Assembly (NCBI GenBank): GCA_003213275.1
Contig: QCNH01000001.1
Location: 22,196 to 86,195, forward strand
Direction of reading: 5' to 3'
From: Prochlorococcus sp. AG-424-M03
GTDB lineage: Bacteria; Cyanobacteriota; Cyanobacteriia; PCC-6307; Cyanobiaceae
Length of the DNA: 64,000 nt
The notes under the pieces are model-generated. The model saw only the letters and a program-made list of their open reading frames with translations. It was not told the origin of the DNA and searched no databases. Both the position numbers and the translations under genes were made by a program. Shown piece by piece: positions 5,663-42,224 of the stretch; position 1 is the first letter of the stretch; each line of letters starts with the position of its first letter.

Positions 5663-5758
5663 AATCTAAATCGATTTTTAAGCTGCAGAAAGTTATGAAG
5701 GATCGAAAAAAATAAAATCCTTATTTACTCAATTAATAAATCCTAGTAGATTATAGAT

Positions 5759-6868
5759 ATGACAGATATCATAGTATTAATTTTATTTGTATTGTCTGGA
5801 GCTGCTTCAGGTTGGCTCGGGGTTGATTTATTGCCCATAGACATTCTCAAACAGGTATCTAATGTAGAAGGTTTTAGAATTGTTTTAGCAATAATAGGTT
5901 TTTTCATAGGATTAGCTGCTGGTTTTGTATTCCTTCAACTGAGAAAGACGTTTCTTGATCAAATAAGGACAATGCCCACTGATTTATTAATAAGTAGATC
6001 AGTTGGCTTAATATTAGGATTATTAGTTGCCAATCTCCTGCTTGCTCCAATTCTGTTAATCCCCATCCCTAGAGAAGTCTTTTTTGCGAAACCCTTAGCG
6101 GCTATATTAAGCAATATATTCTTTGGGGTACTTGGTTATAAGTTAGCGGATACACATGGTAGGACATTATTGAGATTATTCAATCCAAATAATACTGATG
6201 CATATCTAGTGAATGAAGGAATACTTCCAGCTGCAAGTCCAAAAATTCTAGATACAAGTGTAATTATTGATGGAAGAATAAATGGACTGTTAAGTTGCGG
6301 CTTGTTGGAAGGGCAATTAATTGTTGCTCAAAGTGTAATTGATGAATTACAAACTTTAGCTGATTCAAGCAGTAATGAAAAAAGGTCCAAAGGAAGGCGA
6401 GGTTTAAAATTGTTAAAAGAATTAAGAGATTTATACGGTAGAAGACTTGTAATCAACCCAACAAAGTATGAAGGTAATGGGGTAGATGAAAAGCTCCTTA
6501 AAATAACTGAGGATATGACAGGGACTTTAATTACGGCTGATTATAATCTCTCTCAAATTGCGGAAGTTAAAGAATTAAAAGTTATGAATTTGAGTGATTT
6601 AGTTATTGCTTTAAGACCAGAAGTGCAGCCAGGAGAATCACTAAACATAAAAATTGTAAGAGAAGGAAAAGAAAAAATGCAAGGTATTGGATATTTAGAT
6701 GACGGAACAATGGTTGTTATTGACGAAGCAAAGAATTATGTAGGTAGCAGATTAGATATTGTTATTACAGGAGCATTACAAACTCCCACTGGAAGAATGG
6801 TCTTTGGAAAACTGATAAATAATCCTGAGTCAAACAAATCTTTTAAATCACCAGCGACACAGGGCTAA
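5759..6868 (+). CDS. membrane PIN/TRAM domain protein (YacL-like)
   Basis: N-terminal TM helices, PIN motif LDTSVIIDGR...ELQ...D, TRAM motif GIGYLDDGTMVV...QTPTGRMVF. Confidence 0.92.
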   Translation: MTDIIVLILFVLSGAASGWLGVDLLPIDILKQVSNVEGFRIVLAIIGFFIGLAAGFVFLQLRKTFLDQIRTMPTDLLISRSVGLILGLLVANLLLAPILLIPIPREVFFAKPLAAILSNIFFGVLGYKLADTHGRTLLRLFNPNNTDAYLVNEGILPAASPKILDTSVIIDGRINGLLSCGLLEGQLIVAQSVIDELQTLADSSSNEKRSKGRRGLKLLKELRDLYGRRLVINPTKYEGNGVDEKLLKITEDMTGTLITADYNLSQIAEVKELKVMNLSDLVIALRPEVQPGESLNIKIVREGKEKMQGIGYLDDGTMVVIDEAKNYVGSRLDIVITGALQTPTGRMVFGKLINNPESNKSFKSPATQG

Positions 6869-6908
6869 ATCTAGCTAGAATCAGATCAATCTTAATTTTG
6901 TGATACAA

Positions 6909-7571
6909 ATGACTGTATCTGCTCCTTATTACGGCGAAAACACTGTCATGAGGACCCCGCCCCCTGATCTGCCCTCTCTTTTACTAAAAGAGCGAATTGT
7001 CTATCTCGGTTTACCATTATTTTCAGATGATGATGCGAAAAGACAACTAGGTATGGATGTTACTGAGCTAATCATTGCTCAGCTTCTTTATCTAGAGTTT
7101 GAAGACCCAGAAAAACCTATCTTTTTTTATATAAATTCCACAGGGACAAGTTGGTACACTGGTGATGCGGTTGGGTTTGAGACAGAAGCTTTCGCTATCT
7201 GCGATACTATAAGCTATATTAAACCTCCAGTACATACAATATGTATCGGACAAGCAATGGGAACTGCTGCAGTTATCCTTTCATCTGGTACTAAAGGGCA
7301 AAGAGCGGCTCTTCCTCATGCCTCTATTGTTTTACATCAACCTATCAGCGGGGCAAGAGGTCAAGCAACTGATATTCAAATAAGAGCCGAAGAAGTTTTG
7401 AAAAATAAAAAATCAATGCTAGAGATTCTATCTCGTAATACTGGTAAGACTATTGAAGAATTATCTAAAGACTCAGACCGGATGAGTTATCTCAACCCTC
7501 AAGAAGCATTAGATTATGGAGTTATCGATAGAATACTCACAAGCCAAAAAGATTTACCAAATAACATTTAA
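6909..7571 (+). CDS. clpR: ATP-dependent Clp protease non-catalytic subunit ClpR
   Basis: [18 protein letters not shown]; the catalytic Ser position reads GQAMGTAA, so it is inactive; paired with clpP. Confidence 0.9.
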
Positions 7572-7597
7572 CTCTCACAAAAAACTACTTTAAAATT

Positions 7598-8209
7598 ATG
7601 CCAATAGGAACTCCAAGCGTGCCTTATAGACTTCCAGGAAGTCAATACGAAAGATGGGTTGACATATATACCAGATTAGGTGTTGAAAGAATTCTTTTTC
7701 TTGGACAAGAAGTTAACGATGGGATTGCCAATAGCCTGGTCGCACAAATGCTTTATCTTGATTCTGATGACAATTCCAAACCTATCTATCTATACATAAA
7801 TAGCCCAGGAGGATCAGTAACAGCTGGCTTGGCTATATATGACACTATCAAATACGTAAAAAGCGATGTAGTAACAATATGCGTAGGTCTGGCAGCCTCA
7901 ATGGGTGCATTCTTATTGGCTGCTGGAACAAAAGGTAAAAGAGTTGCTTTGCCTCACAGCAGAATAATGATTCATCAACCCCTTGGGGGAACATCTCAAC
8001 GCCAAGCGAGTGATATTGAAATAGAAGCTAAGGAAATTTTAAGAATTAAAGACATGTTAAACATGTCTATGGCAGATATGACAGGTCAATCATTTGAGAA
8101 AATTGAAAAGGATACAGATAGAGATTATTTTCTAAGTGCAGAAGAGGCAAAAAACTATGGCCTAATTGATAGAGTAATAACACATCCAAGCGAAGCAAAT
8201 CCTTCTTAA
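7598..8209 (+). CDS. clpP: ATP-dependent Clp protease proteolytic subunit (ClpP3-type)
   Basis: YINSPGG, GLAASMG (Ser), MIHQP (His), DTDRD. Confidence 0.97.
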
Positions 8210-8318
8210 ATTTTCTAAATAATATTTTAATTTTAATTTTTAAATTTATGATTTATTGGTTTATTTACACATTTAATGTCTAAAATATTAACTATCAAAT
8301 GCTAAGAAGCTACAACTA

Positions 8319-9308
8319 ATGACCCAACTCTTTTACGACACAGATGCTGATCTAAGTCTTTTAAATAATAAAACAATAGCGATAATTGGATATGGATCAC
8401 AAGGTCACGCACATGCCCTAAATCTTAAAGATAGCGGTATGGATGTAATTGTTGGATTATATAAAGGAAGCAAGTCTGAAAGCAAGGCTATTAGTGATGG
8501 TCTCCAAGTGTTTAGTGTTTCAGAAGCTTGCGAAAAAGCAGACTGGATTATGATTCTCCTGCCAGATGAGTTTCAGAAAAATGTTTACCTAAAAGAAATA
8601 GAACCAAACTTAAAAGAGGGAAAGATATTAAGTTTTGCTCATGGCTTTAATATAAGATTCGGACTTATCAAACCCCCTAGTTTTGTAGATGTTGTAATGA
8701 TTGCTCCAAAAGGACCTGGACACACTGTTCGTTGGGAATACCAAAATGGTCAAGGAGTTCCTGCATTGTTCGCAGTAGAGCAGGATTCTTCTGGAAATGC
8801 AAGATCACTAGCGATGGCTTACGCTAAAGGGATTGGCGGAACGAGAGCTGGGATACTTGAAACGAATTTCAAAGAAGAGACAGAAACTGATTTATTTGGC
8901 GAACAAGCGGTTTTATGCGGAGGCTTATCAGAACTCGTAAAATCTGGCTTCGAAACTCTTGTAGAAGCTGGATATCAACCAGAACTTGCTTACTTTGAAT
9001 GCTTACATGAAGTCAAACTAATTGTCGATCTAATGGTGAAGGGAGGCTTATCTCAAATGAGAGATTCCATTTCTAATACTGCAGAATATGGAGATTATGT
9101 AAGTGGCAAAAGACTTATCAATAGTGATACAAAGAAAGAAATGCAGAAAATTCTAAAAGATATTCAAGATGGAACTTTCGCTAAGAATTTTGTAGAAGAA
9201 TGCGATAAAAATAAACCCTTAATGACAAAACTGAGAGAAGAGAACTCAAAACATGAAATTGAGAAAGTAGGTAAAGGTCTGCGCTCGATGTTCAGTTGGC
9301 TAAAGTAA
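8319..9308 (+). CDS. ilvC: ketol-acid reductoisomerase
   Basis: [34 protein letters not shown]. Confidence 0.98.
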
Positions 9309-39890: not shown

Positions 39891-40829
39891 GTGAATATCA
39901 CCTTCTTAGGAACTAGTTCAGGAGTGCCTTCCTTATCAAGAAATGTTTCTTCCTTAGCTCTTAAATTATCACAATCTTCAGAAGTTTGGCTTTTTGACTG
40001 TGGAGAGGGAACTCAGCATCAAATAATGAAAAGTAATATTAAATCTTCGCAAATTAAGAAGATATTTATTACACATATGCATGGAGATCATATTTATGGT
40101 TTGCCTGGCCTTTTAGCGACCTTAGGTTTATCAGGTAATAGTAACGGCATTGAAATATATGGTCCTTCACAGCTGAGAGGTTTTATAAATTCTGCTCTGA
40201 GTAACAGTTTTTGCAAATTATCATTTCCATTACATTTCATTGAAGTTGAAAATTTTGCATCAGAAAAAAAATTTTTATTTGAAAACAACACAATAAAAGT
40301 AACTTGCGCGTGCCTTAAACATAAAATTCCTGCATATGGTTATAGAGTAAGCGAAAAAGACAAGCCTGGTATATTTGATATCAGAAAGGCAGAGACTTTA
40401 AAAATATCACCTGGGCCAATTTATTCTGAACTGCAAAAAGGTAAAAAAGTCGTATTAGCAGACGGAAGGTCATTTGACGGGAAAGAATTCTGCGGACCTC
40501 CTAGGAAGGGTGAAAGTTTTGTTTATTGCACAGATACTGTCTTTAGCGAATCAGCAGTTTCATTATCAAAAAATGCCGATTTACTTGTACATGAATCAAC
40601 TTTTTCTCAGGAGGATGAGAGAATGGCATATGAAAAATTACATTCCACAACAATTATGGCTGCCAAAACAGCATTATTATCTAATACAAAAAAATTAATT
40701 ATTACACATTTAAGTCCAAGATACACTAATAAAAATTCAATTACACCAAGCGATTTGCTAAAAGAGGCGCAAAAAGTTTTCCCAAATACTCACCTCGCCA
40801 AAGATTTTCTAACTGCAGAAATTAAATAA
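39891..40829 (+). CDS. rnz: ribonuclease Z
   Basis: FLGTSSGVP, FDCGEGTQ, THMHGDH, HESTF, THLSPRY. Confidence 0.97.
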   Translation: MNITFLGTSSGVPSLSRNVSSLALKLSQSSEVWLFDCGEGTQHQIMKSNIKSSQIKKIFITHMHGDHIYGLPGLLATLGLSGNSNGIEIYGPSQLRGFINSALSNSFCKLSFPLHFIEVENFASEKKFLFENNTIKVTCACLKHKIPAYGYRVSEKDKPGIFDIRKAETLKISPGPIYSELQKGKKVVLADGRSFDGKEFCGPPRKGESFVYCTDTVFSESAVSLSKNADLLVHESTFSQEDERMAYEKLHSTTIMAAKTALLSNTKKLIITHLSPRYTNKNSITPSDLLKEAQKVFPNTHLAKDFLTAEIK

Positions 40830-40915
40830 ACTGCAACAGTTCGTTAGCAGGAGCGCTGTAAATGACCAACCCATGAAATAATAGTCATAGGTTTTTCTAT
40901 TTGATGTCGATCGAA

Positions 40916-41464
40916 ATGGTTACTTTTTTTTCGTTCCTAAATAAGTCTCTGAAAAGACTTTTAATTTTTCTTCCTTTGTTTTTTGGTTTATTATTGAATC
41001 CAATTTCTGCCAATGCACTCTACCCTAGTGATCCCTCATCTGTAGACGTATTGAAAGGGGACCTACATGGTAAGGATCTTCAAAATACTGAATATGTGAA
41101 ATATGATTTATCAGGTCAGGATTTAGGTGAATCTAACCTTAAAGGTGCATATATGAGTGTAACAACTGCAAAAAATGCTAGTTTCAAAGGGGCCAACATG
41201 AGTAATGTAATAGCATATGCTGTTCGCTTTGATAATGCTGATCTTTCAGATGCGAATCTCACAAATGGTGAGTTGATGAAAAGTATTTTTGATGGTGCGA
41301 ACATAGATGGAGCAGACTTTACTGAAGCAAATCTTGATCTTTCTCAGAGAAAAGCATTATGTGAAAGAGCTAGCGGGACTAACTCCAAAACTGGTGTAGA
41401 TACTTTTGAAAGCCTTGAGTGCACAGGTTTATCAGGTTATATACCCGCAACACCTAAAGCTTAA
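40916..41464 (+). CDS. exported (probably lumenal) pentapeptide-repeat protein
   Basis: signal peptide ending in ANA; A(D/N)L/Fxx repeats; LCERASGTN...T.ESLEC Cys pair typical of lumenal Rfr proteins; ORF opens at 40901. Confidence 0.92.
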   Translation: MVTFFSFLNKSLKRLLIFLPLFFGLLLNPISANALYPSDPSSVDVLKGDLHGKDLQNTEYVKYDLSGQDLGESNLKGAYMSVTTAKNASFKGANMSNVIAYAVRFDNADLSDANLTNGELMKSIFDGANIDGADFTEANLDLSQRKALCERASGTNSKTGVDTFESLECTGLSGYIPATPKA

Positions 41465-41476
41465 GCTTTATAAATA

Positions 41477-41845
41477 CTACCTATCTTTAACTGGATAAAT
41501 ATTACCAGGTTCTTTTGAGCCTGGTTTTTTGCTGTACCACCATTCTTGTATATCAGAAGAAAATTTCCTTGAAAAAAGAGTAATAACTGTTTCAACAGGT
41601 TTTGATCCAGGCTCCAAGATCTGAACAGAATAAGAAGGACATTTTCTTGAAGCCATATCTGCTACAAATCTAGAACCTATTCTTCTCCAACTTGGCTCCT
41701 TACTCTTCCAAGCGAGCCTAGAACAAGGCCAAGGTAACTCTTCCCTGTCATATAATCTGCAACATGGCCCTATAACCTCATAGCTATACTGGCCTCCATG
41801 ACTTGATTGAACACTACCAGTTTTAAAGAATTCAAAGTTATTCAT
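41477..41845 (-). CDS. conserved cyanobacterial hypothetical protein
   Basis: GPCCRLYDREELPWPC...KEPSW; start set at ATG 41845 because the upstream GTG lies inside the petF terminator. Confidence 0.8.
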   Translation of the reverse strand: MNNFEFFKTGSVQSSHGGQYSYEVIGPCCRLYDREELPWPCSRLAWKSKEPSWRRIGSRFVADMASRKCPSYSVQILEPGSKPVETVITLFSRKFSSDIQEWWYSKKPGSKEPGNIYPVKDR

Positions 41846-41849
41846 TTTC

Positions 41850-41880
41850 AAAAAAAAAGCCACCGTATATAGAGGGTGGC
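41850..41880 (-). terminator. rho-independent terminator of petF
   Basis: minus strand GCCACC-(10 nt)-GGTGGC followed by 9 T. Confidence 0.85.
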
Positions 41881-41924: not shown

Positions 41925-42224
41925 TTAGTACAATTCTTCCTCAGCATGAGTTGTAATTGTTACATCAGAGGTTGGATATGCTACACAAGTAAGTACGAAA
42001 CCAGCTTCTAATTGATCATCATCTAAGAAACTCTGATCTGACTGATCAACACTTCCTGAAGTAACCTTTCCTGCGCATGTTGAACAAGCTCCCGCTCTGC
42101 ATGAATAAGGAAGATCAATACCTTGTTCCTCTGCGGCATCGAGGATATATTGGTCATCAGGCACTTCAATAGTTGAATTGAGACCTTCACTTTCACTGAT
42201 GAGTGTAACTTTGTAAGAAGCCAT
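41925..42224 (-). CDS. petF: plant-type [2Fe-2S] ferredoxin
   Basis: CRAGACSTC...LTCVAYP, C-terminal EEELY. Confidence 0.99.

Follow-up and report, generated by a model that had tools for sequence, protein, structure and literature searches.

The described proteins closest to the one discussed here are pentapeptide-repeat proteins of oxygenic phototrophs. Rfr32 of Cyanothece sp. 51142 (2F3L/2G0Y) combines a signal peptide, a short right-handed quadrilateral beta-helix and a C-terminal helix cap, and the product of our gene, which we call gene X, is predicted to be built in the same way. What sets gene X apart from Rfr32 is its leader and promoter region, both derived from psbV, its location in the psbV slot of the chromosome, and its membership in a subgroup found only in Prochlorococcus. 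TL15 of Arabidopsis (At2g44920, 3N90) offers a second point of comparison, as a soluble lumenal pentapeptide protein with a conserved pair of cysteines near the C-terminus, traits that the gene X product would share. Yet the two are only 32% identical and superpose poorly at the global level, and TL15 has a bipartite plastid targeting signal and no tie to the gene of a lost photosystem II (PSII) subunit. Further pentapeptide proteins of the Arabidopsis thylakoid lumen are TL17 and TL20.3.

The third system is PsbV (cytochrome c550) itself. Gene X occupies the same chromosomal slot as psbV and has a homologous spacer, a homologous start codon and homologous codons for the first 28 residues of the leader, but it lacks the cytochrome domain, and the mature parts of the two proteins are unrelated in sequence and in fold. 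That most Prochlorococcus lost psbV and psbU has been read as plain streamlining of the genome, both genes being reported only in the MIT9313 clade, in a study that leaves the pentapeptide gene unmentioned (Kettler et al. 2007, PMC2151091). CyanoQ has been reported as undetected in Prochlorococcus (PMC4180030). In a full-text search of the literature for Prochlorococcus together with psbV, pentapeptide, lumen or signal peptide, we found no description of the chimera, and the databases name its protein generically.

New here are a lumenal pentapeptide-repeat protein with the captured regulatory region and leader of a lost PSII subunit, and the identity of the gene family that donated the mature part. 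The locus is a clean natural example of the capture of a bacterial signal peptide and promoter, with a junction mapped to one codon. It also gives a specific and abundant candidate, open to experiment, for the way in which Earth's most numerous phototroph operates PSII with so reduced a donor side, and possibly a first handle on the function of lumenal pentapeptide-repeat proteins, from cyanobacteria to plants.

The psbV slot and its occupants

The window, that is, the whole stretch of 64,000 nucleotides that we analysed, comes from contig QCNH01000001.1 (positions 22,196 to 86,195 of the forward strand) of Prochlorococcus sp. AG-424-M03, an assembly that is 63% complete (G000). Within it, gene X is encoded on the plus strand at 40916-41464 (182 codons, with the stop codon at 41462-41464). 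Upstream lies rnz (tRNase Z; 39891-40829, plus strand), recognised by the Pfam families Lactamase_B_2 and Lactamase_B_4. Downstream, and all on the minus strand, follow a conserved cysteine-rich hypothetical gene (41477-41863), whose convergent stop is 12 nt from that of gene X, then petF (41925-42224), a 2Fe-2S ferredoxin gene with a Fer2 match at E 3.6e-27, and finally prmA and serA. The first-pass annotation had given this same order of genes, and the strands and coordinates bear it out. It had placed the start of the feature at 40830, immediately downstream of the rnz stop codon; the ATG homologous to that of psbV lies at 40916.

The product of gene X matches the Pfam pentapeptide family PF00805 in two stretches, with an E-value of 4e-14 and 52.3 bits against a cut-off of 20.2, and NCBIfam has no specific family for it. 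Its translation contains two cysteines and no CxxCH motif, as had been claimed, and a search of the protein with the cytochrome c550 family (PF14495) gave no match. The first 34 residues are those quoted earlier and are organised like a Sec signal peptide, with a long and charged n-region, then a hydrophobic core and, directly before LYPSDP, an A-x-A motif. This 34-residue arrangement is conserved in 18 orthologues.

The order serA-prmA-petF-hypothetical-psbV-rnz-spoIID is common to seven relatives, of which two are LLIV-like (G016, G046), two are Synechococcus-like (G005, G012) and three are further relatives (G034, G084, G014). Their psbV sits in the exact position of gene X, on the same strand relative to rnz. 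The placement of psbV between rnz and petF, which the first reading of this DNA had put forward, is therefore seen in all seven genomes. The flanks of the slot are conserved to different degrees: the relatives' orthologues of rnz, directly upstream of psbV, are 54-56% identical, those of the hypothetical gene, which adjoin psbV, are 55-70% identical, and petF, our synteny anchor, is 88-95% identical.

The hypothetical gene encodes 128 residues, with several conserved cysteines, and no Pfam or NCBIfam family matched it. It adjoins either psbV or gene X in all the genomes examined, with the exception of G015, where it abuts rnz directly. Its distance to psbV is below 100 nt in the Synechococcus-like G005 and G012; in the LLIV genome G016 the two genes are separated by about 1.4 kb without a convincing open reading frame (locus ~5737-7112). 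In the window, a terminator-like hairpin with a T-run is found at 41504-41525 (plus strand), 40 nt past the stop of gene X and within the 3' coding end of the convergent hypothetical gene, and it may act as a bidirectional terminator.

The two occupants of the slot exclude each other. Among 401 genomes of the family, psbV was called in 272 (at E <=1e-30) and a gene-X-type match in 104 (at E <=1e-42), and the only genome in both lists is the LLIV genome G016, whose copy has its own leader. There are thus 103 genomes with the fused gene and without psbV, and none of the 401 with psbV and the fused gene together, a combination that had been named beforehand as evidence against the replacement. 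In 102 of the 103 genomes the match begins at residue 1-3 or, for truncated matches, a little further on. Neither gene was found at these thresholds in 26 of the 401 genomes, and those listed are incomplete assemblies. The loss of PsbV that the first-pass annotation took as established agrees with our searches: PF14495 was not found in the 63%-complete G000, nor in any of 29 same-genus genomes, most of which are at least 99% complete. Together with the homologies described below, this shows that the psbV locus has been overwritten rather than emptied, and that its regulatory region and export signal are kept under selection in every sampled psbV-less genome holding gene X.

Leader, spacer and junction

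The leader of gene X had been described as PsbV-like. An HMM built from 18 distinct PsbV leaders and searched against the 13,282 six-frame open reading frames of at least 30 residues in the genome of the window gave gene X as its sole match (E 7e-5, 22.5 bits), the next sequence being at 0.35. When single PsbV leaders were used as queries, four ranked gene X first (E 0.001-0.06), and three more diverged ones did not find it. In the opposite direction, a profile of 18 aligned gene-X leaders was searched against whole genomes, and its only significant match was the N-terminus of PsbV (E 2.6e-12 in G080, 1.4e-10 in G046, 1.6e-10 in G016 and 2.4e-3 in G005), with the next-best matches at 0.19 or worse. 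Apart from PsbV and gene X themselves, no lumenal protein matched in either direction, and the leaders of the other lumenal pentapeptide paralogues were absent from both. The resemblance is thus far beyond chance, with unique top matches in genome-wide searches both ways. It is strongest between the PsbV leader of G084 and the gene X leader of G028, which are identical at 25 of the first 28 residues. The PsbV leaders of G034 and G084 are among those closest to the gene X leader.

The homology extends to the DNA and beyond the coding sequence. The spacer of about 110 nt that follows the rnz stop can be aligned across the two kinds of locus, psbV and gene X, and contains several conserved blocks; the alignment continues through the start codon into the leader. 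The corresponding intergenic region of the window (40830-40915, plus strand), which presumably carries the psbV promoter and 5'UTR, has conserved blocks at 40831-40844 and 40870-40883; a scan of the spacer for consensus sigma-70 promoters found nothing upstream of the ATG. As query of a formal DNA search we used 186 nt of G084, made of the last 96 nt of the spacer and psbV codons 1-30. This query uniquely matches the 5' region of gene X in G030 (83% identity, E 1.7e-48), G028 (80%), G001 (77%), G018 (76%) and G021 (71%), and all its other matches have E-values of 0.17 or worse. This homology of the spacer and of codons 1-28 in the low-light orthologues supports the earlier suggestion that gene X inherited the promoter, leader and targeting signal of psbV.

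The match with the G084 query always stops at position 179-180, which corresponds to psbV codon 28. Past this codon, PsbV has a c-region of its own and then the cytochrome, which begins QWDAETLTV, and gene X has P-x-S-x-x-A followed by LYPSDP. The c-region and mature start of gene X resemble, in the alignment, those of G015 and of a pentapeptide gene of LLIV genomes, which belongs to what we call group A (see below). In the window, codons 1-28 (40916-40999), encoding the n- and h-regions of the signal peptide, are the part derived from psbV according to the leader profiles in both directions, the end of the DNA match and the alignment. Codons 29-34 (41000-41017) encode the c-region with the A-x-A motif and a predicted cut after Ala34; here PsbV and gene X diverge, and the likeness is to G015 and the LLIV sister gene. 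Because PsbV and gene X part ways after codon 28 and gene X resembles group A from there on, the crossover lies within the signal peptide, and the cleavage site probably came from the incoming gene. The in-frame replacement of mature c550 that had been proposed thus stands, refined in that the junction falls after codon 28 and brings the cleavage site with the pentapeptide gene. At the other end, the 3' flanks of psbV, gene X and LLIV group A, each of which has its own hairpin, share no common sequence, and for this reason the 3' junction cannot be mapped.

The DNA argument is carried by the low-light orthologues, because drift towards AT has wiped out the DNA signal in the window's high-light copy, where blastn with the psbV 5' regions of G084 and LLIV finds only the 14-nt block at 40831-40844. 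As its own DNA likeness is no longer significant, the window copy is linked to psbV by the protein profile (E 7e-5) and by a chain through the low-light copies, with which it is connected by full-length orthologues at 57-85% identity and by the same synteny.

One might object that two hydrophobic signal peptides came to look alike by convergence or chance, and that gene X merely landed beside rnz. Signal peptides are compositionally biased, the leader of the window matches PsbV leaders at only 13-14 of its 34 residues, and the DNA around it has no significant blastn match to the psbV 5' region, all of which would be expected under such a scenario. Nevertheless, we give it next to no credence. 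It does not account for unique matches in six-frame searches of whole genomes in both directions, for a match that ends sharply at codon 28, or for identical synteny, and the low-light genes on which the DNA comparison relies are orthologues of the window gene by 57-68% identity over the full length and by shared synteny. The scenario is ruled out by the 71-83% DNA identity between the spacer and psbV start of G084 and the low-light gene X, since this identity spans about 178 nt, of which about 95 nt are non-coding spacer.

We consider it very probable, judging from these comparisons of sequences, that gene X is a chimera made in situ at the psbV locus. What it would have retained of psbV is the rnz-psbV spacer (promoter and 5'UTR), the start codon and codons 1-28. 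Everything downstream, the haem-binding domain among it, would have given way in frame, from within the leader c-region onwards, to a lumenal pentapeptide gene of the Prochlorococcus-specific group A.

The incoming gene and its history

Picocyanobacteria encode several secreted pentapeptide paralogues. In a tree of the mature domains, 20 gene-X sequences group with the gene of two LLIV genomes in a single clade (94/98), distinct from paralogue C and from paralogue B, which is ubiquitous in picocyanobacteria. Group A is probably a diverged offshoot of the paralogue found in all of them. The group-A gene of LLIV is 132-148 kb from psbV, between unrelated genes, and has its own, different leader; LLIV-like genomes thus still keep group A at a separate locus. 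The sampled Synechococcus yielded no group-A member, and neither did G034, G082 and G084, which have kept psbV.

The mature part of gene X (41018-41461) is a pentapeptide-repeat domain of 148 residues, for which AF2 gives a model with a pLDDT of 87.4 and predicts a right-handed quadrilateral beta-helix of the Rfr32 type, followed by C-terminal helices. Compared by Foldseek with 2G0Y and 2F3L, the model reaches TM scores of 0.81 and 0.90, with an rmsd of 0.5 A over about 120 residues and 41% identity, and every one of its top matches is a pentapeptide protein. When PDB sequences were searched with a profile, 2f3l came first (E 4.9e-29) and the Arabidopsis lumenal TL15 was also retrieved (3N90, E 7.5e-17). 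The cysteines at mature positions 115 and 135 are invariant in the alignment of orthologues, in a region with predicted helices at 108-117 and 129-132. The dN/dS ratio is 0.02-0.11 for the mature part and 0.14-0.60 for the leader. Gene X is thus functional and under purifying selection. Contigs from four marine metatranscriptome studies cover it, which attests to its presence in RNA libraries and not to a start site, a strand or a level of expression.

These elements can be assembled into a working view of how the gene arose and acts. The loss of psbV and the fusion would be a single event of deletion or recombination. The chimera would be transcribed from the old psbV promoter, and its product exported by Sec along the route of PsbV to the thylakoid lumen and cut after Ala34. 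The mature protein, of about 15 kDa, would be soluble, a disulfide-stapled beta-helix that continues a presumed protein-binding role of group A. The event would then have placed an existing lumenal protein under PSII-type expression signals, rather than created a purpose-built substitute for PsbV.

A second type of junction is found in G015 (C6, 546-1106, minus strand). This genome has the same spacer, but its psbV-derived stretch comprises codons 1-14, after which come an ATG, a different hydrophobic leader and then an ordinary gene-X mature domain. The inner leader matches, in whole-genome searches, only the N-terminus of LLIV group A (E ~6e-5, 50% identity), which implies that the incoming gene originally came with a start codon and a leader of its own. 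A model that fits both types of junction has an entire group-A gene placed after the psbV leader, with two redundant hydrophobic cores as the outcome; each of the two lineages would later have deleted a different one. The G015 cassette adjoins a tRNA gene and lexA, and the rnz-hypothetical slot of this genome (C5, 1426-2931) is empty, with a spacer of 90 nt. This hybrid should be treated with caution as a singleton: in a collection of 5.8 billion proteins its leader was found only in G015's own protein, and among JGI metagenome contigs there was neither an exact 20-mer of its junction nor a relative.

The history of the fusion is not clean in other respects. In trees of rnz, of serA and of BamA+NblS, the psbV-keeping G034, G084 and G082 interleave with gene-X lineages; the basal branching of these trees is not resolved, and a single change is enough to satisfy all their strongly supported branches. 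High-light gene X, LLIV group A and paralogue B share a segment of seven residues, NSKTGVD (window ~41381-41401), which all low-light gene X sequences lack, with identical boundaries. This pattern is hard to explain by one deletion on the accepted phylogeny and fits poorly with one simple vertical history. It could plausibly have arisen through exchange of alleles, with homologous recombination acting across the conserved flanks. Taking together the second junction of G015, the interleaved psbV keepers and the indel, one origin and several origins are both compatible with the data.

Cellular location and a possible role at photosystem II

From the origin of its leader and from its closest solved relatives, we infer that the product of gene X resides in the thylakoid lumen. 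In cyanobacteria, Sec leaders by themselves do not discriminate between lumen and periplasm, and the type of leader would suit equally a protein exported mainly to the periplasm, with a function in the envelope unrelated to photosynthesis. We find this destination rather unlikely, as the leader comes from a bona fide lumenal subunit of PSII, the closest solved relative was deposited as a lumenal protein (titles of 2G0Y/2F3L), and the next is TL15 of the Arabidopsis thylakoid lumen (3N90). Granted a lumenal location, the protein might go further and substitute for PsbV, with its mature part docked at the vacated site, or close to it, on the lumenal side of PSII, where it would shield the Mn cluster. 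This is possible, although we would not count on it; the same tentative standing applies to the site itself, which would be formed by loop E of CP43 and the C-termini of D1 and D2, in lineages without PsbV, PsbU and CyanoQ. The inheritance of the expression and targeting signals of PsbV is in favour of such a role, as are the 103 genomes with the fused gene and none with psbV, and the strong purifying selection. The psbU slot points the same way, because it was cleanly emptied (see below), so that the retention of a gene at the psbV slot was not automatic. On the other hand, LLIV carries PsbV and the group-A protein together, which means that the protein is older than the loss of PsbV and serves a separate role, and lumenal pentapeptide proteins are absent from a 2025 review of the extrinsic subunits of PSII.

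The suggestion of a replacement near the donor side of PSII, made when the locus was first annotated, is therefore still conjectural, and co-folding moved it only slightly. CP43 and D1 were taken from G257, whose gene X is 98% identical, because the G000 assembly, at 63% completeness, lacks psbC and psbA. The co-fold of CP43, D1(1-344) and mature gene X gave an ipSAE of 0.54, against 0.00 for the best control, which weakly favours binding (0.56, 0.54 and 0.54 in the separate runs, with a contact agreement of at least 82% and a partner pLDDT of at least 78). In the calibration, the mark was reached by 58 of 80 solved complexes and by 2 of 110 mismatched pairs, but at values of 0.60 or less only 7 of the 80 solved complexes passed, along with both mismatches. 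By this measure, passes at such a score are more often false than true, except where binding was already probable on other grounds. Moreover, no interface was reported for the co-fold, CP43 and D1 were folded without alignments, and the paralogues were not among the controls.

There is a partial parallel in the green lineage, where PsbV and PsbU were replaced by PsbP and PsbQ. There too, a lineage with a chlorophyll a/b-type antenna lost a cytochrome-type extrinsic subunit and non-haem lumenal proteins took over at the donor side, an analogy that concerns the functional hypothesis only. PsbP and PsbQ are demonstrated subunits of PSII encoded elsewhere in the genome, whereas gene X physically overwrote psbV and its binding to PSII is hypothetical. 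In its most general form, which we put forward as a speculation with the odds against it, the idea is that the gene X protein is an unrecognised extrinsic subunit of PSII in all Prochlorococcus without PsbV, PsbU and CyanoQ, one that binds CP43 and D1 at or near the site of c550 and protects the Mn cluster. If true, the cluster would be protected without the cost of haem iron, and the lumenal pentapeptide-repeat family would have its first assigned function.

The fate of psbU differs from that of psbV. In G034, G084 and G016 the psbU slot is located between genes of about 490 and 260 residues. The same two genes abut in the genome of the window (contig C36, ~6491-8640), where both end at ~7909. 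There, psbU is a clean deletion, with nothing in its place. The genomes G034, G084 and G082, which keep psbV, are small (1.3-1.9 Mb) and low in GC (41-44% at the G034 and G084 loci), and G034 and G084, among the genomes tested, also keep psbU. The presence of both genes in G034 and G084 goes beyond their reported restriction to the MIT9313 clade among Prochlorococcus-like genomes.
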